Shown here: positions 1,733 through 14,095 of the stretch, piece by piece | Layout: each line of letters starts with the position of its first letter | Numbering within the stretch: position 1 is the stretch's first letter | Program-made: the position numbers and the translations under genes | Notes under the pieces: generated by a model | What the model was told of the DNA's origin: nothing | What the model saw: the letters and a program-made list of their open reading frames with translations, nothing else | The model's database searches: none | From: an uncultured bacterium | GTDB taxonomy: Bacteria; Armatimonadota; UBA5829 | Direction of reading: 5' to 3' | DNA length: 24,000 nucleotides | Assembly (NCBI GenBank): GCA_964611645.1 | Contig: CAZTAO010000003.1 | Span: forward strand, 95,184-119,183

Positions 1733-1761
1733 TTGCCAAAGGGCCTCTCGCTTGCTAGAAT
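1733..1761 (+). promoter_or_regulatory. sigma70-like promoter of the 1797-5942 operon (predicted)
   Basis: TTGCCA (1733-1738), 17-nt spacer, TAGAAT (1756-1761). It lies 36 nt upstream of the TTG start at 1797, which has GGAG at 1785-1788. Prediction from sequence only. Confidence 0.4.
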
Positions 1762-1796
1762 ATGGTTGTTGATGAAAACCCCTTGGAGAGTTCTTC

Positions 1797-2246
1797 TTGA
1801 AGCATCGTCCCTCTTTTGATGAGACCTATATGGATGTGGTGGATGTTATCGCACGAAGGTCCACCTGCCTGCGGCGGCATGTCGGCGCGGTTGTGACCAT
1901 AGACCGCCGCATACTGTCGCACGGCTACAACGGCGTAGTAAGCGGCCGGGAGCACTGCTGCGAGACCGGTGTCTGCCTCAAAGACAAGGCCGGCAATGAA
2001 GATTTCAAGATCTGCGTGCATGCGGAGCAGAATGCCATCTGCCAGTGTGCCAAGCGGGGCCTGGCGGTGGAGGGGGCGACAGTATATGTGAACGCAGACG
2101 TGTGCGTTACCTGCGCCAAACTGCTGGTCAGTTCCGGCATTGCCAGGTGCGTGGTGCGGCGCGACAGAAAAGGCTCCGAAGACGGTTTGGATGTGCTTCG
2201 GCAGTCCGGGGTGGAAGTGATAGAGTGGCCCGATGGCTCAGCCTGA
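1797..2246 (+). CDS. deoxycytidylate (dCMP) deaminase, ComEB-type
   Basis: PSFDETYMDVVDVIARRSTCLRRHVGAVV...GYNG...CVHAEQNAI...VCVTCAKLL carries the cytidine/deoxycytidylate deaminase zinc motifs (HAE ... CxxC) in the dCMP-deaminase arrangement. TTG start with a Shine-Dalgarno sequence. Confidence 0.85.
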   Translation: MKHRPSFDETYMDVVDVIARRSTCLRRHVGAVVTIDRRILSHGYNGVVSGREHCCETGVCLKDKAGNEDFKICVHAEQNAICQCAKRGLAVEGATVYVNADVCVTCAKLLVSSGIARCVVRRDRKGSEDGLDVLRQSGVEVIEWPDGSA

Positions 2247-2922
2247 GATAAGGGCGTTCGTTTTTGACATAGGGGCCACCCTGGTCACAGGCCCGCCGGT
2301 CGCTCCCAACAAAGTCATAGCGGCACTGCTGCACGGGGTTACACCCAAGCAGGTCGCCTCCGTGATTATGACCTGTGACCTGCAGTCCTTCGCCCAGGCG
2401 ATATCGGCCCTGGAGGAGCGATTCGGCGCGATTGGTGAGTCCGAGCAGGCAGCAATCCGGGAGCTTTGGGATTCGCAATTGGGCGCGCCGGTTGCCATAG
2501 AGGGCGCGGTGGAGACTGTGCTGGCCCTCAAGCGCGAGGGTTTCAGGATAGGCCTGCTCTCAGACATCTGGACGCCATACTTCATGGGTGCATGCGAAGC
2601 GATACTCGAGGTAGTCGAGGCTGCGGATTGCGTCACCCTGAGCTGCCGCACCGGCCATCGCAAGCCTGAGCCCTTCAACTTCCGGACGGTTCTGTCCGGG
2701 TTGGGAGTGGAGCCGGGGGAGGCTGTGATGGTGGGCGACACATACGAGCATGACATCCACCCGGCGCTGGAAATGGGAATGCGGGCTGTGTGGGTCCTGT
2801 GCAGGCCCGACCGGGAAGCCGAGTCAGCCAGAGGCGTAATGGAAGGCAGCCTGCCAATGCCCACAAGGACCATCTTCGACATAACAGAACTAGCCGCGCC
2901 TGAAATCTGGCGCAGCCTTTAG
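2233..2922 (+). CDS. HAD-superfamily hydrolase (atypical motif I)
   Basis: Motif I is FVFDIGATL: the Asp nucleophile is present but Gly sits where the second Asp of DxD normally is. Motif II LLSD, motif III Lys in HRKPEP, motif IV VGDTYEHDI. The ATG at 2233 lies 14 nt inside the deaminase gene. Confidence 0.75.
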   Translation: MAQPEIRAFVFDIGATLVTGPPVAPNKVIAALLHGVTPKQVASVIMTCDLQSFAQAISALEERFGAIGESEQAAIRELWDSQLGAPVAIEGAVETVLALKREGFRIGLLSDIWTPYFMGACEAILEVVEAADCVTLSCRTGHRKPEPFNFRTVLSGLGVEPGEAVMVGDTYEHDIHPALEMGMRAVWVLCRPDREAESARGVMEGSLPMPTRTIFDITELAAPEIWRSL

Positions 2923-2930
2923 GAGAGAAC

Positions 2931-3545
2931 ATGCAGATCGAACGAGTTGAGCGCCATAGTCTGGATGAGTTGGTTGCGAATATGAGGAAGGTGGGGATGC
3001 TCACCGACCCCAGCGCGCGCGTGTATGAGAAGTGCGATGTGCAGGTGGTGACCTACCATACCGATGAGATTGCGCCTGCGCAGAGATACGTTCTCACCCA
3101 GGAGATAATGAAAGTCCGCAACCTCCGCTGGGCGCTTCGGGAGCACGGGGTAGACCTGTTCAAGCTGGACGGCTACGCCAGCATCTGGCTTCCCGGATAC
3201 GAGGAGCCCATAGACGTTCTCCCGCCGGTGATAGAAGAGTCCCGAGAAGCAGATGGCTCTGTTGTGAAGATACTCAACGACGGTATGCACCGGGTCTACC
3301 TCGCCCGGATGGAACGATGCCCGGTGCAGGTGGTCTATGTGACCGGTGTGCCCGAACAATACCCATACTATGCGTTTCCGCTTGTTGATGGCTGGAATGG
3401 CGTGGAGATAGTAAGCGAGCTTCCCGAGGGGTATATCAAGAAGTGGCACCGCATCAAGAACTACAAGTCCCTCTACCGGGACTTCAACACCGGTTTTACC
3501 AATGTCGGTGGGCCGCGAGGGAACTTTACCAATGCCGCAAAATGA
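2931..3545 (+). CDS. ParB/sulfiredoxin-fold (ParBc-like) protein of unknown function
   Basis: VKILNDGMHRVYLAR matches the DGxHR core of ParB-like nuclease/Srx domains, with an upstream PAQRYVL...LRWALREHGVDLF segment. AGGAG at 2920-2924 precedes the ATG at 2931. Amino-acid composition is normal, whereas the 267-aa antisense ORF is Ser/Arg/Pro-rich. Confidence 0.55.
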   Translation: MQIERVERHSLDELVANMRKVGMLTDPSARVYEKCDVQVVTYHTDEIAPAQRYVLTQEIMKVRNLRWALREHGVDLFKLDGYASIWLPGYEEPIDVLPPVIEESREADGSVVKILNDGMHRVYLARMERCPVQVVYVTGVPEQYPYYAFPLVDGWNGVEIVSELPEGYIKKWHRIKNYKSLYRDFNTGFTNVGGPRGNFTNAAK

Positions 3546-4989
3546 GAGGTCGGAGCTTGAGTTTGTCCCGCTGCACTTCGGAGACAAGCTGCACGTAGTC
3601 AACCCGCGCGCGCGGCTCGGGGTGCTGACGCTGTGGAGCAAGATTCCGTATGTGCTTGAGAAGATGGGTGAACTCGGTATCGACCTCGACCCCCACACCA
3701 GCAAGATAGCCGCAATAGGCACCCTCTACGGCAACGGCATTCCGCACCTGCTGCGAAACCTTCTGTACAATCCCCAGATCACCGGGCTGATAGTCTGCGG
3801 GGCGGACAGGTCCGGCTCGGCAGGCGAGCTTCAGGCGTTTTTCGAGAAAGGCCTTGAAGAAACGACTGTGCTCGGGGAGACGGTCAGTATGGTATGCGGA
3901 ACCAACAGGGTTATCGATGACCGCGTTACGCCGGACATGTTCAGCGTGAAGCCGGTCATAGTGAGTGTGGGCGACCTCAAGAGCGACGAGAGCCGTGGCA
4001 AGCTACGCGAAGCAATAGACTCCTGGCAGCCGGGATCCTATCTGAACCCCGATCGGACGGTTGTCGAACTCCCTAGGCCGGAACTGGTCTGTTTCCCCGG
4101 CGACCCTCGCAACCAGAACATATCCAAAGACTCCCCGCTGGACGCGTGGCGGGAACTGGTCTTCCGAATCTATCGCTTTGGCCACATGACCAAGCTGCGC
4201 AAAGGTGACAGGCAGGAGTTGCAGAACGTCCGCGTGGTTATCCGAGAGCCACGGCCGGACACCGCCGAACGGCTGCGGGAGTATGGTTTCGACCTGCACT
4301 CGCTTGAGGCCTATCAGAAGGACATGCTCGAGTCCGAGCTTCCGCCGGACCAGTCCTACACCTACGGCAACCGCATCCGATCATACTACGGCTTCGATGC
4401 CCTGGCTAAGTTCGCCGTGAGGCTGAAGTCCAATCCGCAGGACCGCGACTGCTATCTCTCCCTGTGGAACAGCTTCAAGGACATCGACGCCGACGACTCC
4501 CCCTGCCTGGTGTCCCTGTTCTTTCGAACATACGACGGCAGGCTGACTCTGACCGCCGTATACCGTACACACAACGCAGTCGACGCCTGGCTGAAGAACG
4601 CGTACGGGCTGATGAAGTGCCTCGAGGAAGTGTCTCGCGATTCGGGGATACCGATGGGCGAGCTCACCATGATCAGCCACTCCATCAGCATCGATCCATC
4701 CCGGTTCGATGTCGCCGAGCGCGTTGCGAAGTCCAGGGGCTTCGAGATAGACTTCGACCCCAACGGGCAGTTTGCGGTGAGCCTGGAGGAGGGGGAGATA
4801 GTTGCACGGCATCTGGACGATTCCGGGCGGGTGCTGGGCGAATATCGGTCAAAAAAGGCCGAGCGCATTCAGCACGAGATCGCCCGCGACTGCGCGATTT
4901 CCGATGTGAACCACGCTATGTATCTTGGCCGACAACTTGCCCGGGCGCAGGTGTGTTTAGAGACCGGCGAAGAGTTTGAGGAAAGCTGA
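3502..4989 (+). CDS. multidomain thymidylate-synthase-fold enzyme (MtrA-like N-domain + TS-like core + DUF4346-like C-tail)
   Basis: ATG at 3502; an alternative ATG at 3532 would overlap the upstream gene by only 14 nt. aa ~20-160: LGVLTLWS...IAAIGTLYGNGIPHLLRNLLYNPQITGLIVCGADRSGSAGELQAFFEKGLEE resembles the MtrA-type domain. aa ~205-405 is TS fold: YGNRIRSY, DRDCYLSLWN, DSPCLVSLFF (Cys335, nt 4504-4506, at the nucleophile position), LTLTAVYRTHNAVDAWLKNAYG (the LYQRSxD...PFNIASY block) and GELTMISHSISID (the GDAHIY block). aa ~412-495: DFDPNGQFAV...HAMYLGRQLARAQ resembles the DUF4346 signature. All alignments are by eye. Confidence 0.7.
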   Translation: MSVGREGTLPMPQNERSELEFVPLHFGDKLHVVNPRARLGVLTLWSKIPYVLEKMGELGIDLDPHTSKIAAIGTLYGNGIPHLLRNLLYNPQITGLIVCGADRSGSAGELQAFFEKGLEETTVLGETVSMVCGTNRVIDDRVTPDMFSVKPVIVSVGDLKSDESRGKLREAIDSWQPGSYLNPDRTVVELPRPELVCFPGDPRNQNISKDSPLDAWRELVFRIYRFGHMTKLRKGDRQELQNVRVVIREPRPDTAERLREYGFDLHSLEAYQKDMLESELPPDQSYTYGNRIRSYYGFDALAKFAVRLKSNPQDRDCYLSLWNSFKDIDADDSPCLVSLFFRTYDGRLTLTAVYRTHNAVDAWLKNAYGLMKCLEEVSRDSGIPMGELTMISHSISIDPSRFDVAERVAKSRGFEIDFDPNGQFAVSLEEGEIVARHLDDSGRVLGEYRSKKAERIQHEIARDCAISDVNHAMYLGRQLARAQVCLETGEEFEES

Positions 4990-4994
4990 GCGGT

Positions 4995-5942
4995 ATGACA
5001 GACAACGACCTAATCAGGCGCATCGAGTCGCTCAACAGGCGGCCGCTGAAGAACAAGCCCGAACCGGGGGAGGCAGTTTCGGGATTTCCGGAGCGGATGG
5101 AGGCTTCTTCTCTCTATCGAGGCCGCAGTGGTCGCTCCTCAAATCCCGAAACACCTGGGGATGGTGTTTCGGGACTTGAGCGGAGCGGAAGTCCCGAAAC
5201 ATCCCACGAACCTCCAGTGCTCAAGCTGGAGGAGACGATAGCGGGGGTGGTTACCGAGCCGAGGCCAGGCTGCTGCTACTACCACATCGAATGCCAGGCG
5301 GACTTGCCTGAGGTCTGCGCAGACATCATCCACGGCCGGTTCGTTCATCTTACCGGCCACCCGCACTCCGCCCCCATCGCCCCGCTTGCGGAGGGGTTCA
5401 GCTTGGAATCGCTGGACCCGACCAAAGTGGTGTTTATGGATATCGAGACCACCGGGCTAAGGGGCTGCCCGCTGTTTCTGATTGGCGCGATGCGATCCGA
5501 TGGTGAGAAGTTCATATTCAAGCAGTATTTTGCGCGTGACTACTGCGAAGAATCCGGCGTGATCGCGGCGTTTGCAGAGGACTTGCGCGATGTCGACCTG
5601 TTGGTGACTTTCAACGGGCTGAGGTTCGATATGCCGTTCATAGTGGGCCGAGGCTCGCATCACGGCATTCGCGTGCACTGCCACGGAGCGCACCTCGACC
5701 TCCTACTCGCCGCCAGAAAACATTACCGCAAAGAGACCCCCAACCACAAGCTCCAGACCCTGGAGCGGGTGATATGCGGTCGCGAGCGCGAGGGCGACAT
5801 CCCCGGCAGCCAGATTCCCCAGGCATACGATGACTACGTCTTCTCCGGCGACGCCTCCAGGATCACAACCATACTACACCACAACCGCCTGGATCTGCTC
5901 ACCCTGCCCGAACTGATGACCAGGATGTGGCGGGAAGAGTAG
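4995..5942 (+). CDS. RNase H-like (YprB/COG3359-type) predicted 3'-5' exonuclease
   Basis: VVFMDIETTGL (exo motif I), LLVTFNGLRFDMPFI (motif II) and HHNRLDLLTLPEL (motif III). The N-terminal DLIRRIESLNRR leader is typical of this family. ATG lies 5 nt after the previous stop, with GAGGAAAG upstream. Confidence 0.7.
   Translation: MTDNDLIRRIESLNRRPLKNKPEPGEAVSGFPERMEASSLYRGRSGRSSNPETPGDGVSGLERSGSPETSHEPPVLKLEETIAGVVTEPRPGCCYYHIECQADLPEVCADIIHGRFVHLTGHPHSAPIAPLAEGFSLESLDPTKVVFMDIETTGLRGCPLFLIGAMRSDGEKFIFKQYFARDYCEESGVIAAFAEDLRDVDLLVTFNGLRFDMPFIVGRGSHHGIRVHCHGAHLDLLLAARKHYRKETPNHKLQTLERVICGREREGDIPGSQIPQAYDDYVFSGDASRITTILHHNRLDLLTLPELMTRMWREE
5076..5200. repeat. palindromic repeat cluster inside the exonuclease ORF
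   Basis: GTTTCGGGA at 5076-5084 and 5166-5174; its complement TCCCGAAAC at 5144-5152 and 5192-5200. A perfect 12-bp stem pairs 5144-5155 with 5163-5174 across a 7-nt loop. A second 7-bp stem pairs 5171-5177 with 5189-5195. Confidence 0.8.
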
Positions 5943-6041: not shown

Positions 6042-7028
6042 CTATTGCCCGCCCCCTGCGACACCCGCTATCGCCGCAGCTATCTTCTCCGCCGTAGGCA
6101 TACATGCATCTTCTAGCACCCCGCTGAACGGCATGGGTATGTGTTCGGTTCCAAGCACCTTGGGCGGGGAGTCGAGGTAGTCGAAGCACTCCTCCGAAAC
6201 CCTCCGCACTATCTCGGCGCCAAAGCTCGACACGGGCGTGCATTCCTGCACCACCAGCAGCTTGCCTGTCTTCTTCACCGATTCGGCTATCAGCTCAAAA
6301 TCCAGCGGCACAAGGGTGCGCGGGTCTATGACTTCGACGCCTATCCCCGAACTCTGCCCCAACTCATCAGCCACCCGCAGCACGCTCTCCAGAAGGTAGG
6401 AGGTCGAGACTACGGTAACGTCCGCCCCCTCGCGCCGCACGATGCCTTTGCCGAACGGGATGGCGTAGTCCCCGTCCGGAACCTCTCCCTTGTTGGAATA
6501 GATGAACCGATGCTCGAGGAAGATCACCGGGTCGTCGTCCCGGATGGCGGTCTTCAGCAGGCCCTTGGCATCGTATGGCGTAGATGGCACAACTACCTTC
6601 AGCCCCGGGGTGTGCGCGAACCACGACTCCAGGCTCTGTGAGTGGTGCGCGGCTTCCCTGCTGCCGGACCCCTGCTCGCTGCGGATCACCATCGGCACAC
6701 ACACCGCCCCACCGGACATCAGCCTCAGCTTCGCGGCCTGGTTCACCACCTGGTCCCACGCGGTGGCGATGAAGTCGATGTACATAACTTCCACCACCGG
6801 CCTCAGCCCCGCAACAGCAGCGCCGACTGCCAAGCCAATAAACCCGCACTCCGATATCGGGGTCTGCCGAACCCGCATCTCTCCGAACTCCTCAAGCTGG
6901 CCCTGCTGGACCCCCCAGACTCCGCCGTATCGGCCTATATCCTCACCTATCTGGAACACCGACTGGTCGCGGCGCATCTCTTCCGCCAGGGCGTCTCGTA
7001 GGGCTTGTGTATAAGTTATTACTGCCAT
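6042..7028 (-). CDS. 2-oxoacid (pyruvate/acetoin-type) dehydrogenase E1 component, beta subunit
   Basis: ITYTQALRDALAEEMRRDQSVFQIGEDIGRYGGVWGVQQGQLEEFGEMRVRQTPISECGFIGLAVGAAVAGLRPVVEVMYIDF is a typical E1-beta N-domain. ATG lies 3 nt after the E1-alpha stop. Confidence 0.9.
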   Translation of the reverse strand: MAVITYTQALRDALAEEMRRDQSVFQIGEDIGRYGGVWGVQQGQLEEFGEMRVRQTPISECGFIGLAVGAAVAGLRPVVEVMYIDFIATAWDQVVNQAAKLRLMSGGAVCVPMVIRSEQGSGSREAAHHSQSLESWFAHTPGLKVVVPSTPYDAKGLLKTAIRDDDPVIFLEHRFIYSNKGEVPDGDYAIPFGKGIVRREGADVTVVSTSYLLESVLRVADELGQSSGIGVEVIDPRTLVPLDFELIAESVKKTGKLLVVQECTPVSSFGAEIVRRVSEECFDYLDSPPKVLGTEHIPMPFSGVLEDACMPTAEKIAAAIAGVAGGGQ

Positions 7029-7031
7029 CTT

Positions 7032-8000
7032 CTACAAACCTCCCAGGTGGTTTTCCGCTCGGAACTCGGCGACATCCGGCAGAGCGCTGGATTTGGCAAA
7101 CGCCTCAGCCTCATCAAGCTGCGCGCCAACCCTTTGGCGGACGTCTTTCAGCGCTTTGGCATTCGCCGCGCCGGAGTCCAACAGCCTCTTCTCAAAGGTG
7201 ACAATCGGGTCGTGCTCCCGCCAGTAGCTTTCCTCTTCGCGAGTTCGCAGCTTGCAGTCCTGCAGCACCATGCAGTGCCCCTCGTGCCGCAGGGTCTTGC
7301 ACTCCAGCAGCGTCGGCCCTTTGCCCGATCTCGCGCGCGCCACTGCTTTATCAGCCGCAGCCTTCACTTGCTCCACATCGTTGCCGTCCACGGTCACACC
7401 GGGAATCCCATACCCGGCCGCCCTGGCTGACACATCCGGCAAGGGCATCACGTCGCAGGACGGGGTTGTCGCGGCCCAGTGGTTGTTCTCGCACACGAAC
7501 ACAACCGGCAGACACCACAGCGCGGCCATGTTGATGCTCTCATGGAATGTGCCCTGGTTGGAGGCGCCATCGCCGAAGAAGCTGATTGTCACCTTACCAT
7601 CGTTCTTGTAGAGGCTCGAATAAGCGAGGCCGTTGGCCATTGGTATTCCGCCGCCGACTATCCCGTTGCCGCCCATATACCCGATTTCCGGCGCGAAGAT
7701 GTGCATAGACCCGCCCCGGCCCCGACTGTAGCCTGTCTCCTTGCCCAGCAGTTCCGCCATCACCCGCTTTGGCTCGCAGCCCTTGGCAATCGCGTGGCCG
7801 TGGCCCCGATGGGTGCTGACCACGTAGTCCCCAGGCTCCAGCGCCGCGCAGACACCCGCCGCACACGCCTCTTCGCCGATGTACAGATGCAATGCCCCGA
7901 CCAGCAGCCCCTGCCGGTGCAAGGCCTTGGCCCGCTCCTCAAACCCTCGGATCAGGAGCATTGTCTCCATTAGCTTCATTGAATCAGTCTGATTTTTCAC
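7032..8000 (-). CDS. 2-oxoacid dehydrogenase E1 component, alpha subunit (TPP-dependent)
   Basis: YIGEEACAAGV, HRGHGHAIAKG, GGSMH and the TPP motif GDGASNQGTFHESINMAALWCLPVVFVCENN. I place the start at GTG 8000, which overlaps the mttB-like stop as GTGA. The alternative is ATG 7979. The ORF-track start at 8105 would overlap the upstream gene by 109 nt. Confidence 0.85.
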   Translation of the reverse strand: MKNQTDSMKLMETMLLIRGFEERAKALHRQGLLVGALHLYIGEEACAAGVCAALEPGDYVVSTHRGHGHAIAKGCEPKRVMAELLGKETGYSRGRGGSMHIFAPEIGYMGGNGIVGGGIPMANGLAYSSLYKNDGKVTISFFGDGASNQGTFHESINMAALWCLPVVFVCENNHWAATTPSCDVMPLPDVSARAAGYGIPGVTVDGNDVEQVKAAADKAVARARSGKGPTLLECKTLRHEGHCMVLQDCKLRTREEESYWREHDPIVTFEKRLLDSGAANAKALKDVRQRVGAQLDEAEAFAKSSALPDVAEFRAENHLGGL

Positions 8001-9484
8001 GCTCCCAACAGCTCTTTCCTCGCGCTCGCGACTATTCCATCCAATTCCCTGACCCAATCCGCAGTCCGCTCGACGGGCTGGTAGCCCTTCATCTGCTCCC
8101 GCCACATCTGGTCGGCCTCATCCAGTATCGCATTCTCATCGGCTTTCCACAGGCCGGTGGTGGGGTCGTCGGTGCGGAAGAGCGGCGAGGAAAACATCTC
8201 GCGGAAGTGGGCGATGGTATGCTCGCTGCCGATCATGTTCTCGCCGGTTTCGATGGACTCGCGGATAAGGTCATACGGCACGGTCTCATCGCTCACACAT
8301 ACCTCTTCAGGGACAAACAGCGCCTTCTTGATCTCGATATCCAGCACCGCCTGGGTCGGCGAACCGACACCGCCGTTCCCAATGGTCCCCACGCCGGGGT
8401 AATTGAACACCGTGCTTCCCTGCAGCCTCATATTCCTGTGCATCCCGCCCAAGCTCTCCACCACAGCCTGAATGCCCGGCTTCCTGGCGGCGGGGGTGAA
8501 GAATGTGTCCACCCGGATATGGCCGCCGAAGAATGCGTTGAACAGTTCCTTCACGCCGATATTCGCCAGCGAGGATTCGACCGTCGCGCTGGTGACATCC
8601 GCGGTTCGCATATCCAGCATCGATGCCAGCGCGCGGCCCGTGATGTCGGCATCATTGTTCTGGGTCCATACGGCCACCATCCCCCCCAGTATCTCAGCCG
8701 CCATCATCACAGTCGCGCCTGCGGCTGTGACGGGAGTGTTGAGGCCAATCACCATCATCGTAGCAACGTGGTACCGCCCGATCCCCAGCCTGGCCCGCTC
8801 CACGGCTTCCTCAGCGGAACGGTAATCAAAGGCCAGCGGAGGAGTCACGCACTGCGAACCTGCGAGGTAGGCCGATTCCTTCGGTTTGCCGGTCATAAGC
8901 TCGCCGACCGCCTGGATATACTTGATCATCTTCGGGTCGATGGCCTCGATGCCGCCGACTTTGTCGGTGATCTTCAGCGCCATTGCCAGCGACTCAATTC
9001 GCTCGGTCTGCGGCGGCGCGTCCTGGCGGTACCAGTTTGCGATGTAGCCGATCTCAGGCACGCTGTGCGCCCATTTGTGCATATCGGTGAATATCCTGGA
9101 GTCCACGGGCAGCACCCGCTCGGTGGGGTAGTCGTAGTATGCGGTGGGGCCGCAGTCGAAGACGGTTGTCCGCATCATCTTCCTCATCCGCTGCTCTTCC
9201 CGCTCACGTCCGCCGGTCCAGGTGAGGAAATGGCCGTAGTCTACGATGCCGAAGCGGTTGATGAACTGCTCTCGCTCGTCATCCTCCGTCCGGGTCCGCG
9301 CCTGGCTCAGAGCGAACTCCTCGATCAGCTTCCGAGGAATCCGCACGCGCCCGCTTGGCGACAACTCGCACCCCGCCGCAAGCATATCCCCCTGCATCTT
9401 CTCATGCTCCACGCGCATCCCAACGTCCCCAAGAAGCCGCACCACATCATCCCGCAATCTCTCCAACTGCGACTGAGTCAACAT
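7997..9484 (-). CDS. MttB-family (trimethylamine/quaternary-amine) methyltransferase homologue, non-pyrrolysine
   Basis: 495 aa. The N-terminus LTQSQLERLRDDVVRLLGDVGMRVEHEKMQGDMLAAGCEL..GRVRIPRKLIEEF and the overall length fit COG5598/MttB-superfamily proteins as I recall them. There is no in-frame TAG. AGGAGGAG Shine-Dalgarno at about 9492-9499. Confidence 0.65.
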   Translation of the reverse strand: MLTQSQLERLRDDVVRLLGDVGMRVEHEKMQGDMLAAGCELSPSGRVRIPRKLIEEFALSQARTRTEDDEREQFINRFGIVDYGHFLTWTGGREREEQRMRKMMRTTVFDCGPTAYYDYPTERVLPVDSRIFTDMHKWAHSVPEIGYIANWYRQDAPPQTERIESLAMALKITDKVGGIEAIDPKMIKYIQAVGELMTGKPKESAYLAGSQCVTPPLAFDYRSAEEAVERARLGIGRYHVATMMVIGLNTPVTAAGATVMMAAEILGGMVAVWTQNNDADITGRALASMLDMRTADVTSATVESSLANIGVKELFNAFFGGHIRVDTFFTPAARKPGIQAVVESLGGMHRNMRLQGSTVFNYPGVGTIGNGGVGSPTQAVLDIEIKKALFVPEEVCVSDETVPYDLIRESIETGENMIGSEHTIAHFREMFSSPLFRTDDPTTGLWKADENAILDEADQMWREQMKGYQPVERTADWVRELDGIVASARKELLGA

Positions 9485-11743: not shown

Positions 11744-12214
11744 TTGGCGATATCCGAAGAAGAACTGGTGGCGCGGGCACAGTCGGGCGACACGGGGGCA
11801 TTCGACGCCCTCATTGGCCTGCACCAGCGGCGGGTCTTCGCGCTGGCGTTCCGGATGCTCGACAGCGCCGATGATGCCGCGGATGTCCAGCAGGAGACTT
11901 TCGTTCGCGCTTGGCGGAGCCTGCGCAAGTTCCGTGGGGACGCGGCATTCTCCACCTGGCTGCACCGGATAACCGTCAATTTGTGCCTGGCCAGAAAGCG
12001 CCGCAGGCATTTTGAATGGCTCAGCCCGGCTATCGAGTCGAGCCTGGGAGACCCCACGCAATCGGTAGGGGCCGCCTGCCTGGTGAGGACAGAGAGGGCG
12101 GTGGCGGTCAACAGCGTGGTAGCCTCGCTGCCGGCGCATTACCTGGCGCTGATTGTGCTGCGGGAAATCGAGGAGCGGCCGTTCGAGGAAATTGTGCGGA
12201 TTCTGGGCTGCTGA
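11744..12214 (+). pseudogene. ECF-type sigma-70 family factor, 3'-truncated
   Basis: Region 2 is DAADVQQETFVRAWRSLRKFRGDAAFSTWLHRITVNLCLARKRR. Region 4 starts LPAHYLALIVLREIEERPFEEIVRILGC and then hits TGA (12212-14), before the expected recognition helix (GTVKSRLxRAR-type). The sequence beyond belongs to a transposase fragment on the other strand. Confidence 0.6.
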
Positions 12215-12914
12215 CTTTCATCACGCGACACTCAGGATCAGAGGAAGATGCAGACTTAGTGCCTGCTTCCTTGAGCACCCTGGCACGCTCGGCCAGAATC
12301 GCTTTCCGCCTCACTGGGTCCTTCAGGTCTTCGGGCAGTTCGTTCCCGTTTCCATCGCCATAGAGTTGGTCCTCAGCAGAATCCGTCGTCTCAGCCTTGC
12401 GAAGCGTCTCGTCCACAGCGGCCAGTTCCCGGGACAAGTTCTTGGCATCGTAAACTGACTTCCTGGAAGCCTTGGCGGCAATCTTGGTAGAGTCCACTGA
12501 AACTACGTTCAGAAGCACCAGGCCACACGAAGCACACAACCTCACGCTGTCCACAAACAGCAGCCTCAGCTCCTCATACTTCTGCTTCCGAAAACGAGCT
12601 ATCGTATGGTGATCCGGAGTCAGACCGTCAGCAAGCCACATATAGCGCTTGTCGTTCTTAGCCAAGTCCTCAATCTTACGGCTGCTGAAAGTGCCCTTAG
12701 AATATGCATACACCAACAGCTTTGCCAGGACGCGTGGAGGATACGCAGGACAGCCACTATCGCTATAACCGGATTCCATAACTGACCAGTCCAGATTCTC
12801 CATCACGTCGTTGAGCGCGCGGACGTCACAGTCAGCGGCAACTGCGTCATCCAGACTGGTCGGAAACAGCAGTATCTGTCTCCTATCCAAAACCGAATCC
12901 TTGAATCTGCCCAT
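12215..12914 (-). mobile_element. IS1182/IS5-type transposase, N-terminal fragment only (DDE domain missing)
   Basis: The InsH/DUF772-type N-domain reads CPAYPPRVLAKLLVYAYSKGTFSSRKIEDLAKNDKRYMWLADGLTPDHHTIARFRK. Homology-like sequence ends at ...SSSDPECRVMKVS (~12213), where such transposases normally continue into the catalytic domain. The rest of ORF 12108-12914 is antisense of the sigma gene. GGAGGG Shine-Dalgarno 7 nt before ATG 12914. Confidence 0.6.
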
Positions 12915-12989
12915 AGCGAATCCCTCCTATAGAGGAATTCGACAAACACACCCATAATACCTGTACAAAAAGAGCACTTTTGAGACAGC

Positions 12990-13024
12990 CTGCAGGCAAC
13001 TGAAGCAACGAAATATGCCAATGC
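12990..13024. repeat. direct repeat copy 1 flanking the TetR-SMR pair (possible IS end)
   Basis: CTGCAGGCAACTGAAGCAACGAAATATGCCAATGC, immediately after the SMR stop codon. It matches 14096-14129 at 29 of 35 aligned columns in the same orientation. Confidence 0.7.
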
Positions 13025-13366
13025 TTAATGCGGCGATCCACTCAGATTCAATCCAATAACACCAAGAATGATGAGTAGAATCGAGATGCCCTTTGCCACG
13101 GTGAACGAGTCGCGGAAGATTATGATGCCACCGATGGTAATCAATGCGGTTCCAACGCCTGACCAGATTGCGTAGACCATGCCAATATCCAGCTTCTTGA
13201 CAACTAGGCCAAGCAAGAAAAAACAGAAGATGTAGCATGTCACCATAACCGTGGTCGGACCGGTACGCGTAAAGCCCTGACTGGCCTTCATGCTTAATGT
13301 CCCAATCACTTCGAGCAGAATCGCCGCGCCAAGATACACCAAACTCATCACCGGTATGTTATTCAC
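13025..13366 (-). CDS. SMR-family (EmrE/QacE-like) small multidrug efflux protein
   Basis: 113 aa with four hydrophobic helices. It has the membrane Glu in AAILLEVIGTLSMK and the YAIWSGVGTA motif. GTG start 13366 shares one nucleotide with the TetR TAG stop, and AAAGGAGG lies 6 nt upstream. Confidence 0.85.
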   Translation of the reverse strand: MNNIPVMSLVYLGAAILLEVIGTLSMKASQGFTRTGPTTVMVTCYIFCFFLLGLVVKKLDIGMVYAIWSGVGTALITIGGIIIFRDSFTVAKGISILLIILGVIGLNLSGSPH

Positions 13367-13911
13367 TATGATCCTCCTTTGCTCTTTGCTGATTCTGATG
13401 CCAACACCAGCAATCGATCGAGAACGTGTTTGCGCAATTCGCCTGTTGGTGGCGAGAATGCAAATAGATCGGCCAGATATAATCCATCTGCAGCTAGACG
13501 AATGATTGTCGCCAATACAGGATCACCGCCATCTGTTTCGGCCTGATGCTGCCATTGTTGATATTGCTGACGCACAGTTGCCAATAATGAAGGATCATTT
13601 GCGATTGCGGCCAGTAGGCCGACTCCAAAGCCCGCATTTTCCGCATCGTCGAGTGCAGAGGCCAGTAGATAAGCGCGCATCCATCCTCCCGGCACATCTG
13701 AATGGTGGTGCGCGATTGAATCATTGAAATGTAAGACCATCTCTGTGAGTAATCCCTGAAGCAGTGCAGTTTTCGTGGGGAAGTGATACAATACACCGCC
13801 TTTGCTGACCCCCGCTTCTTTCGCCACGGCGTCCAACGTCAGCCGGTCAGCACCGTCGCGCTGTACCACAATGCGTGCAGCATGATATAGCCGTCGTTTT
13901 GTATCCTTCAT
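13366..13911 (-). CDS. TetR/AcrR-family transcriptional repressor
   Basis: HTH LTLDAVAKEAGVSKGGVLYHFPTKTALLQGL. I place the start at ATG 13911 (MKDTKRR...), because the ORF-track TTG at 13947 is the TTG of a consensus -35 hexamer. Confidence 0.8.
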   Translation of the reverse strand: MKDTKRRLYHAARIVVQRDGADRLTLDAVAKEAGVSKGGVLYHFPTKTALLQGLLTEMVLHFNDSIAHHHSDVPGGWMRAYLLASALDDAENAGFGVGLLAAIANDPSLLATVRQQYQQWQHQAETDGGDPVLATIIRLAADGLYLADLFAFSPPTGELRKHVLDRLLVLASESAKSKGGS

Positions 13912-13917
13912 ACACAT

Positions 13918-13947
13918 AGTATACCGTCCAGCCGGTGTAGTTGTCAA
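13918..13947 (-). promoter_or_regulatory. near-consensus sigma70 promoter of the tetR-smr operon (predicted, probably leaderless)
   Basis: Minus strand: TTGACA (13947-13942), 18-nt spacer, TATACT (13923-13918), then ATGTGT, then ATG (13911-13909). Confidence 0.55.
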
Positions 13948-14095
13948 CCTTGGACTCAGCAGAGAAGCGCCGTCACTTCTTCGTTGCTTCGATCGGCTCC
14001 GATCGAAGACCGACTCGCAGAGGCGGCAGGTTCGGCTGTATCACTTTGGAGGGATGCTTCCTATGATGTTGAATGTGCGTGGCTTTCGGCCCCGG

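Follow-up and report, generated by a model that had tools for sequence, protein, structure and literature searches.

A conserved gene module joining a thymidylate synthase fusion to deaminase, HAD and ParB-CE proteins: a candidate route from deoxycytidine nucleotides to dTMP in anaerobic bacteria

This study concerns a cluster of five genes in a stretch of 24,000 nucleotides (nt) from an uncultured Armatimonadota bacterium (contig CAZTAO010000003.1; this whole stretch is called the window, and positions refer to it). A previous sequence-only reading of the window had described the cluster, at positions 1733-5942, as an operon encoding a dCMP deaminase, a HAD hydrolase, a ParB-like protein, a thymidylate synthase (TS)-fold fusion protein and an RNase H-like exonuclease. 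The open reading frame (ORF) listing of the window contained the five plus-strand ORFs at the coordinates given for them. Successive ORFs overlap by 14 nt, lie 8 nt apart, overlap by 14 or 44 nt and lie 5 nt apart, in line with the earlier description, and a convergent minus-strand gene (6042-7028, E1 beta/transketolase-like) does close the block. The domain identities claimed for the five genes were likewise borne out by profile matches. The features are the following (aa, amino acids).

1733..1761, plus strand: sigma-70-like promoter match, TTGCCA-17 nt-TAGAAT with a TG extension; a consensus match only, 36 nt before the first start codon
1797..2246, plus strand: ComEB-like dCMP deaminase, 149 aa; TTG start, GGAGAG upstream
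2233..2922, plus strand: HAD-IA hydrolase with a C1 cap, 229 aa
2931..3545, plus strand: ParB-CE protein (PF24392), 204 aa, single-domain ParB/sulfiredoxin fold
3532..4989, plus strand: three-domain TS fusion, 485 aa (495 aa if started at 3502)
3550..4101, plus strand: MtrA-like (corrinoid-protein-like) N-terminal domain of the fusion, by profile homology to MtrA
4102..4716, plus strand: archaeal-type thymidylate synthase domain of the fusion (TIGR03283)
4744..4980, plus strand: PterinBD-DUF4346 C-terminal domain of the fusion (PF14251, 6.3e-19)
4995..5942, plus strand: RNase_H_2 (YprB-like) DEDDh exonuclease, 315 aa, with a disordered N-terminus

The five genes had been placed behind one predicted promoter. 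A consensus match is indeed present at 1733-1761, but two such sites were found against 1.6 expected from shuffled sequences, and a structure scan found no terminator-like hairpin after 5942 (z = 0.79). The boundaries of the transcription unit were therefore set by gene spacing only. The product of the gene upstream on the same strand (314-1690), a protein of 458 aa, weakly resembles LptD (NF002997, 1e-5), which indicates a diderm host; the gene stops 106 nt before the deaminase start, so that read-through into the cluster is possible. For the fusion, the start at 3532 is preceded by a Shine-Dalgarno-like motif (GAGGGA) and the one at 3502 is not. As the NCBI-called product (P0001) is also 485 aa long, 3532 is the better start.

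We scanned a collection containing one genome per species for ParB-CE and mapped the neighbouring genes by tblastn. This yielded 75 ParB-CE loci in about 10 phyla: Armatimonadota, Abditibacteriota, Peptococcaceae/Desulfotomaculia, magnetotactic bacteria of the Nitrospirota, Nitrospinota, Thermodesulfobacteriota, Planctomycetota, Binatia, Patescibacteria and one Nanoarchaeota. Cultured carriers included Desulfofundulus thermobenzoicus, D. australicus and Desulfovirgula thermocuniculi, and the complete genome of Desulfonema magnum also has such a locus. Neighbours were counted in those 51 loci whose flanking sequence reached 2.5 kb or more on both sides. A deaminase was found near ParB-CE in 41 of these (38 of the ComEB type and 3 dCTP deaminases), a HAD in 40 and the TS fusion in 33; all four genes were present together in 25 loci, while none of the three partners was seen in 2. 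The ParB-CE and fusion genes always overlapped or lay no more than about 30 nt apart in the tblastn-mapped loci. All-against-all clustering of 909 neighbouring ORFs disclosed no other recurrent partner. When the search was started from the fusion, the order deaminase-HAD-ParB-CE-fusion was found in an 8.2-Mb genome, that order headed by a dCTP deaminase in a Bacillota-labelled metagenome-assembled genome (MAG), and ParB-CE with the fusion alone in a 7.6-Mb genome.

The adjacency of the five genes is far beyond chance, the same order recurring in dozens of genomes from several phyla. Conserved synteny, which had been proposed earlier as a test, was found across phyla for four of the genes; the fifth does not belong to the unit, an RNase H-like gene following the fusion in only 5 of the 75 loci, all of them in Armatimonadota. 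The exonuclease is a lineage-specific passenger outside the conserved module, and is probably co-transcribed with the cluster in the window. The conserved module consists of the deaminase, the HAD, ParB-CE and the TS fusion, with ParB-CE as its hub, and is spread across many anaerobic bacterial phyla. Its composition varies: 13 loci had the deaminase-HAD-ParB-CE trio without the fusion, and 8 had ParB-CE and the fusion without the HAD. In Peptococcaceae the trio is placed between rpiB-glyA and the wecB-atp operon; glyA encodes serine hydroxymethyltransferase, the source of methylenetetrahydrofolate. In the 8.2-Mb genome, the deaminase gene is immediately preceded by one (L001:3632-5938) for a glycyl-radical enzyme resembling pyruvate formate-lyase, in keeping with the anaerobic lifestyle of the cluster's carriers.

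The deaminase of the window matched PF00383 (dCMP_cyt_deam_1; 63.5 bits, 1.9e-17) and the phrog_174 dCMP deaminase (7e-42), and contains HAE and C-V-T-C (CxxC) zinc motifs. With TIGR02571 (ComEB) it scored 107.6 bits, the equivalog cut-off being 219, and dCMP is assigned as its substrate by context. In Nitrospirota and Bacillota loci, the slot is occupied by a dCTP deaminase instead of a dCMP deaminase; the copies that we checked, some of which came from shorter loci, scored 198-207 bits with TIGR02274 of NCBIfam (cut-off 92.8). The replacement of a dCMP deaminase by a bona fide dCTP deaminase ties the module to the making of dU nucleotides. As to the exonuclease, it matched PF13482 above the Pfam threshold (116.6 bits, 1.4e-33), and D-I-E, N-G-L-R-F-D and H-H-N-R-L-D are read at its DxE...NxxxFD...Hx4D motifs.

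The HAD assignment of the second protein was obtained at 3e-13, and the Pfam models PF00702 (50.9 bits) and PF13419 (44.7 bits) scored above threshold. Its motif I reads F-D-I-G-A-T-L, which departs from D-x-D-x-[TV], the general acid/base at Asp+2 being replaced by Gly. This is not a peculiarity of the window, as F-D-I-G-[AS]-T-L was conserved in all 53 aligned cluster-linked homologues; alignment to Protein Data Bank entry 4ygq puts FDIGAT opposite FDIDGT. Motifs II to IV are intact, with conserved S110, K144 and G168-D169...D174. The loss of the Asp+2 acid would suit a phosphoanhydride substrate rather than a dNMP, and would spare dUMP and dTMP.

The third protein, which the earlier reading had called 'ParB-like', belongs to a family that already has a name: it matched PF24392 (ParB-CE) over the whole profile (positions 1-147 of 147) with 206.8 bits and 1.9e-61, the gathering threshold being 23 bits. 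'CE' means 'conflict effector' in the nomenclature of Nicastro, Burroughs, Iyer and Aravind (Aravind lab), explained in PMC12871103. The AlphaFold2 (AF2) model (predicted local distance difference test, pLDDT, 91.6) is a single domain with a ParB/sulfiredoxin core. Comparison with solved structures by Foldseek gave weak matches to Atu1540, sulfiredoxin, Noc, SerK and SbnI (E ~1e-3, probability ~1.0), and identity to any solved structure was at most 17%. Within Armatimonadota, ParB-CE sequences are 61-81% identical. Q51, E102, D117-G-x-H120-R121 and R183 are invariant throughout the family, in housekeeping, phage and defence members, which argues for an enzyme and not a scaffold. The C-terminal segment is conserved and strongly basic (KKWHR...YRDFN...GPR). 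Canonical features of the ParB clamp are absent: NDGMHR stands where a GERRxR box II would be, and no helix-turn-helix is seen in the 204-aa single-domain model. Having neither this element nor a dimerisation domain, ParB-CE is not a DNA clamp.

Nicastro et al., in Nucleic Acids Research in 2023, reportedly predicted that specific ParB versions degrade nucleotides at phosphate linkages, and are said to have traced such effectors back to housekeeping homologues. Distant ParB-CE members were found beside a dCTP deaminase, in a defence island and in phage-like contexts. The one in the defence island (L080:127-9624, European Nucleotide Archive ERZ27271429; 31% identity) has a KAP-NTPase/QatB/TatD set on one side and, on the other, a PNP_UDP-NB-ARC STAND protein and then an anti-phage dCTP deaminase made of a kinase-like and a DCD domain. 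Longer members of the family were inspected as possible Rosetta-stone fusions and carried no informative extra domain.

The fusion was modelled with a pLDDT of 90.3 and a predicted template modelling (TM) score of 0.83, and its 499 homologues are named 'thymidylate synthase' or 'DUF4346 domain-containing protein' in the source databases. Its N-terminal domain matched MtrA structures in profile searches (5laa, 1e-5; 8q3v, 1.8e-5; 5l8x, 2.7e-4) as well as NF002126 (4.9e-4). The cobalt ligand of MtrA, His84, aligns to Ser106 in the motif CG-DRSGS, and nearly all copies have this Ser. The TS domain matched TIGR03283 over profile positions 3-193 (191 of 201) with 113.9 bits and 6.8e-33, below the cut-off of 174.55, and PF00303 over residues 287-368 only (21.1 bits, 1.9e-4), below the gathering threshold of 24.3. 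The closest solved folds according to Foldseek were a flavin-dependent dCMP hydroxylase (9iqc/9iqu), MilA and ThyA. For DUF4346, no solved structure was found by profile search. Both extra domains are conserved, with invariant motifs of their own, and both are linked elsewhere to pterin- and corrinoid-dependent one-carbon (C1) enzymes (NF002128, TIGR00284). The possibility that the fusion, counted as 495 aa, is an ordinary ThyA had been raised as an objection; scores below the Pfam and NCBIfam cut-offs, the two additional domains and the replacement of Asp169 by Asn show that it is not.

Residue equivalences in the TS domain were read from HMMER alignments to solved ThyA structures, with E. 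coli numbering for ThyA. Cys335 corresponds to C146, Arg355 to R166, Asn366 to N177 (which specifies uracil), Tyr288 to Y94 and Arg315 to R126, and Arg237 probably to R21. C335, R237, Y288, R315, R355 and N366 were invariant in 40 fusion homologues, while R127 of ThyA is not conserved (Asp316). Asp169, which binds the pterin ring in ThyA, corresponds to Asn358, and the pattern R-x-x-N...N, with Asn at this position, was present in 39 of the 41 fusion copies read from the fetched loci. The Leu143-equivalent residue is Asp, Ser or Gly, and neither the IWDEW folate motif nor the C-terminal folate lid is present. Thus, nucleotide binding and covalent catalysis look intact in the alignments, and the one-carbon/cofactor site does not look like that of ThyA.

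Two generalisations about D169N were considered and rejected. It is not general to short or archaeal-type bacterial TS, as ordinary short bacterial TS keep Asp; nor is it found in every ParB-CE-linked TS, since a permuted X-DUF4346-TS protein, encoded in two deltaproteobacterial MAGs (L073:7985-9604 and L069), retains Asp169 (ARSHDVYGGLPQN). This protein also shows that TS and DUF4346 are associated in more than one domain order. A special kinship of the TS domain with the phage flavin hydroxylases was another candidate, and turned out to be structural only, as the sequence profile finds ThyA at about 1e-4 and not AfhB at E <= 0.01.

Several related copies deserve mention. In Desulfonema magnum and in Desulfobacterales HSG2, the cluster is headed by a further, stand-alone short TS with N169. 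The D. magnum copy (CP061800, L062:4492-6261), which lies ahead of the HAD, contains a LAGLIDADG-type intein of some 390 aa between GEHY and TYGQ, within the conserved Tyr94 active-site loop (Y-T-Y-G); the spliced protein has D169N, and the HSG2 orthologue (P0390) has no intein. In a 4.7-Mb Desulfobacterota genome, an N169 short TS is paired only with a dCMP deaminase, in what looks like an ordinary TS locus. On a phage-like contig (L086:5097-8260, Logan SRR24908218) with Acb2/Tad1, Dam and HNH genes, an N169 short TS overlaps a ParB-CE gene by 4 nt and a dCMP deaminase follows 1.2 kb downstream; these genes are a possible phage module for nucleotide modification or supply. Two Abditibacteriota proteins (P0003 and P0004, 786 aa) are enlarged fusions with two DUF4346 matches, encoded apart from the trio and beside a HIRAN gene, and the Abditibacteriota MAG L024 has the trio without a fusion. 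The fusion of a Saccharibacteria MAG (L066:7637-9037) has in-frame stops TAG, TGA and TGA at the otherwise invariant Tyr288, Arg315 and Trp363. UGA recoding was rejected because the three stops replace three different residues, and this copy is a pseudogene or an assembly error.

Sequence and context show a dC-nucleotide deaminase at one end of the conserved module and a dUMP-type TS-fold enzyme at the other, with deamination at either the mono- or the triphosphate. We consider it quite probable that the cluster is a deoxypyrimidine module of the thymidylate branch. That the fusion makes dTMP is the better bet on the product, given the housekeeping context, the affinity with methanogen TS and the uracil-type Asn. 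The complete picture, a housekeeping operon of anaerobes leading from dCTP or dCMP over dUMP to dTMP, with trimming by the HAD and ParB-CE and a TS of atypical cofactor use, has in our estimate an even chance. Among the three roles put forward by the sequence-only reading, the alternative thymidylate route fits best, in view of the rpiB-glyA/wecB-atp context, the deaminase swap, Asn177 and the want of any defence, glycosyltransferase or DNA-modification partner among the neighbours; DNA hypermodification and antimetabolite synthesis found no positive support in the bacterial loci. The cluster would then be a way of making thymidylate that employs an atypical synthase together with two new accessory enzymes.

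In the scheme that we propose, the deaminase would make a dU nucleotide, as a ComEB-type dCMP deaminase in most loci, including the window, and as a dCTP deaminase elsewhere; this step is well supported. The TS domain of the fusion would then attack C6 of dUMP through Cys335, and a one-carbon unit would be transferred to C5, a chemistry on dUMP that is supported by the active-site residues. Because the folate contacts of ThyA are lost (Asn at 169, no IWDEW, no lid), the C1 donor or the reductant would presumably be handled by the MtrA-like and DUF4346 domains, a role suggested by their links to pterin- and corrinoid-dependent C1 enzymes. Finally, the HAD and ParB-CE would bring the triphosphate arising from anaerobic ribonucleotide reduction (dCTP, or dUTP where the deaminase acts on dCTP) down to the monophosphate, in parallel to Dcd/Dut or MazG-type enzymes. 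Such trimming would explain why either type of deaminase fits the cluster. The precedent is the anti-phage PUA-Calcineurin-CE-HAD system, a sequential dNTP -> dNDP -> dNMP cascade in which MazG can replace the partner of the HAD (bioRxiv 2026, PMC12871103); the predicted nucleotide-degrading nature of the ParB-CE family and the lack of the Asp+2 acid in the HAD point the same way. We nevertheless regard the assignment of the HAD and ParB-CE as phosphohydrolases trimming dCTP or dUTP to the monophosphate as tentative, and rather less probable than the dTMP product.

A number of observations weigh against this picture. Canonical ThyA cannot carry out its folate-dependent reaction without Asp169, and the fusion has Asn there. 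D169N has been described as diagnostic of flavin-dependent 5-hydroxy-dCMP synthases in a study of 5-hydroxycytosine phages (Nucleic Acids Research 2026; PMC13326640), so that the product might not be dTMP. In D. magnum and HSG2, the second, stand-alone TS means that the fusion may not be 'the' TS. The loci with the trio only and those without the HAD indicate that the four genes are not an obligatory unit. The HAD of the PUA-Calcineurin-CE-HAD precedent has a canonical DxDxT motif, unlike that of the cluster. Lastly, ParB-CE could be a kinase, as its DGxHR motif is that of sulfiredoxin and SerK, both phosphotransferases, and not that of the GERRxR CTPases.

The last point leads to a reading in which the pathway from a dC nucleotide over dUMP to dTMP is unchanged, ParB-CE acts as a ParB/sulfiredoxin-fold kinase (for example for dTMP or another dNMP, or for a deoxynucleoside) and the HAD either has a regulatory role as a nucleotidase or is an inactive scaffold. 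ATP/ADP-dependent phosphotransferases (sulfiredoxin, SerK, SbnI) with the same DGxHR motif are among the nearest solved folds, and the basic C-terminal segment could hold a second nucleotide. TS is commonly linked with a dNMP kinase in phages, and in the 8 loci without a HAD, ParB-CE is paired directly with the fusion. However, ParB-CE is equally linked to the deaminase and the HAD in the 13 loci where the fusion is absent, and its distant members adjoin dCTP deaminases and defence genes, a setting for which nucleotide degradation is the published prediction. We therefore think a kinase unlikely.

A second reading has the cluster make a modified pyrimidine, for instance 5-hydroxymethyl-dUMP or 5-hydroxy-dUMP, which ParB-CE would phosphorylate while the HAD removes competing dTMP or dUMP, as in hypermodification of the phage SPO1/T4 type, the product going into DNA or into a nucleoside metabolite. 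In phage pathways for modified thymines, too, a dCMP deaminase and a TS homologue are found together with a nucleotidase and a kinase. This reading draws on the reported signature value of D169N for 5-hydroxy-dCMP synthases (PMC13326640), on the hydroxylases 9iqc/9iqu (TM 0.71-0.78) and MilA as the best structural neighbours of the TS domain, on the non-hydrophobic residue at the Leu143 position and on the phage contig where an N169 TS overlaps ParB-CE close to a dCMP deaminase. Yet most hosts are strict anaerobes, and this speaks against an O2-dependent hydroxylation; the housekeeping neighbourhoods are conserved and the proteins themselves very conserved, as the figures for ParB-CE in Armatimonadota illustrate. 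Clustering of the neighbours revealed no recurrent glycosyltransferase, DNA kinase, restriction or reader gene, and PADLOC found nothing past the deaminase fold. The sequence of the TS domain comes nearest to that of the housekeeping methanogen TS, the phage hydroxylases being missing from the profile search at E <= 0.01, and the N169 short TS of the 4.7-Mb Desulfobacterota genome stands with its dCMP deaminase alone, as in an ordinary TS locus. We think a modified pyrimidine unlikely as the product of the bacterial cluster.

Far less plausible is an anti-phage system in which the deaminase, ParB-CE and the HAD destroy dCTP on infection and the TS fusion is incidental, a reading that is poorly supported. 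It can appeal to the conflict-effector name of the ParB-CE family (PMC12871103), to the resemblance of the deaminase to anti-phage dCTP deaminases (NF041025, 1.7e-18; PADLOC dCTPase, 2.3e-24) and to the distant ParB-CE that shares an island with KAP/QatB/TatD, PNP-NB-ARC and kinase-DCD genes. But the deaminase matches only the catalytic domain (about 50 residues) of the defence enzymes, without their kinase-like domain, and the cluster has no sensor, STAND or PUA component. Its fixed syntenic position on the core chromosome across phyla and its highly conserved proteins are unlike defence islands, and the tight coupling to a TS makes metabolic rather than defensive sense. A search of PADLOC-DB 2.0 for a defence system gave only partial similarity of the deaminase domain and of DEDDh, with no match for the HAD, ParB-CE or the fusion, and PHROGs gave only generic dCMP deaminase, TS and HAD matches and nothing for ParB-CE. 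A phage origin was looked for and rejected: a scan of IMG/VR with ParB-CE found one distant solitary copy and one with the phage-type copy found none, and BFVD holds only remote ParB/sulfiredoxin folds. Equally improbable, and as poorly supported, is an ordinary ThyA operon with fortuitous, unrelated neighbours and irrelevant extra domains, for although databases often call the fusion 'thymidylate synthase' and a dCMP deaminase beside a TS is commonplace, the fusion scores too low for the cut-offs of ThyA and TIGR03283, bears D169N and has two additional conserved domains with invariant motifs of their own, and the HAD and ParB-CE co-occur with the fusion or the deaminase in 49 of the 51 well-flanked loci; the synteny counts already contradict such a reading.

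The rest of the window is ordinary chromosome, with genes for LepA, AdoHcy hydrolase, an MttB-like methyltransferase and an aminotransferase, and the nearest named relatives of the host are Armatimonadota MAGs. A minus-strand gene (7997-9484) encodes a 495-aa homologue of the corrinoid-dependent methyltransferases of the MttB superfamily (trimethylamine/glycine-betaine type) and adjoins the E1 alpha/beta pair of a 2-oxoacid dehydrogenase (6042-8105); it suggests that the host runs a corrinoid-dependent C1 metabolism. Around 12108-14000, where a DUF772 transposase ORF is located (12108-12914, minus strand), the GC content falls to about 0.50, against about 0.59 elsewhere, and this region is probably an insertion sequence.

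The searched literature yielded no experimental or descriptive paper on the cluster, in agreement with the earlier statement that no characterised system with this gene set was known. The Pfam names ParB-CE and PterinBD-DUF4346 suggest that computational work has already noticed the component domains, and possibly the neighbourhood. To our knowledge, thymidylate synthesis, an essential step of DNA metabolism, has only two established solutions, ThyA and ThyX. The fusion is a candidate third architecture, which is conserved in Armatimonadota, Desulfotomaculia, Desulfobacterota, Nitrospirota and other anaerobes, is devoid of the residue on which canonical ThyA depends for folate chemistry and is tied to two further uncharacterised enzymes, the HAD and ParB-CE. 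There is a real but unproven chance of a new TS mechanism. In its boldest form, the fusion would be a new mechanistic class of TS and the sole TS of many anaerobes, working with a TS-fold Cys nucleophile and no folate oxidation, receiving its C1 unit and/or reductant through the MtrA-like and DUF4346 domains (a corrinoid methyl donor in the His-off state could serve, for example, or the D169N pocket could house a flavin or deazaflavin), and fed by a new route on which a ParB-fold protein and a HAD convert dCTP or dUTP to the monophosphate. We hold this to be a long shot, only a little ahead of a kinase role for ParB-CE. Were the fusion the sole TS, it would bring a new cofactor logic to dTMP synthesis. 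In that case, the poorly defined step from dCTP to dCMP or dUMP in organisms that reduce nucleoside triphosphates would also be filled, and the ParB-CE fold, otherwise known only as a predicted immune effector, would gain a housekeeping function, which would illustrate concretely how core metabolism can supply a defence effector. Direct tests of the module are feasible, as Desulfofundulus thermobenzoicus, Desulfovirgula thermocuniculi and Desulfonema magnum at least are cultured hosts that carry it.

Compared with known systems, ParB-CE has the fold core of the ParB-CTPase, sulfiredoxin and SerK-SbnI proteins, together with a Box-I-like P-A-Q-R-Y motif and a phosphate-binding D-G-x-H-R motif, and differs from them by its conserved C-terminal segment of 60 residues. 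Like PUA-Calcineurin-CE-HAD, the cluster combines a HAD with another candidate phosphoesterase for nucleotides from the 'CE' effector families; here the partner has a ParB fold and not a calcineurin fold, there is no PUA sensor, the HAD has DxGxT instead of DxDxT, and the context is housekeeping, not defence. The N-terminus of the fusion has in common with MtrA, the corrinoid subunit of tetrahydromethanopterin S-methyltransferase, the core N-x-G-I...N-L-[IL]-x-N-P-x-I...C-G, and MtrA paralogues fused to DUF4346 exist (NF002128). Unlike MtrA, it has Ser for His84 and no membrane anchor, and it occurs in bacteria without methanogenesis; corrinoid binding is putative.

The fusion, the methanogen-type TS (TIGR03283) and ThyA (PF00303) have the TS fold in common (Foldseek E 1e-10 to 1e-12), and they share Tyr94, Asn177, the Arg residues that bind phosphate and a P-C motif with the catalytic Cys. 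The methanogen-type enzyme is a stand-alone protein of about 200 aa, whereas the TS of the fusion, whose activity is predicted, is embedded between the MtrA-like domain and DUF4346. With its best structural neighbours, the flavin-dependent dCMP hydroxylase AfhB and the 5-hydroxy-dCMP synthases of phages HY126, RB69 and DLP3 (9iqc, 9iqu), the fusion shares D169N, which marks the loss of folate use (PMC13326640); those enzymes carry the cytosine-specific N177D and need O2, whereas the fusion keeps the uracil-type Asn177 and its hosts are anaerobic. Finally, the cluster would follow the same logic as Dcd and Dut of E. coli or ComEB of Bacillus, in which a dC nucleotide is converted to a dU nucleotide for TS, except that both types of deaminase are interchangeable in it and that the HAD and ParB-CE, rather than Dut or MazG-type enzymes, would trim the phosphates.

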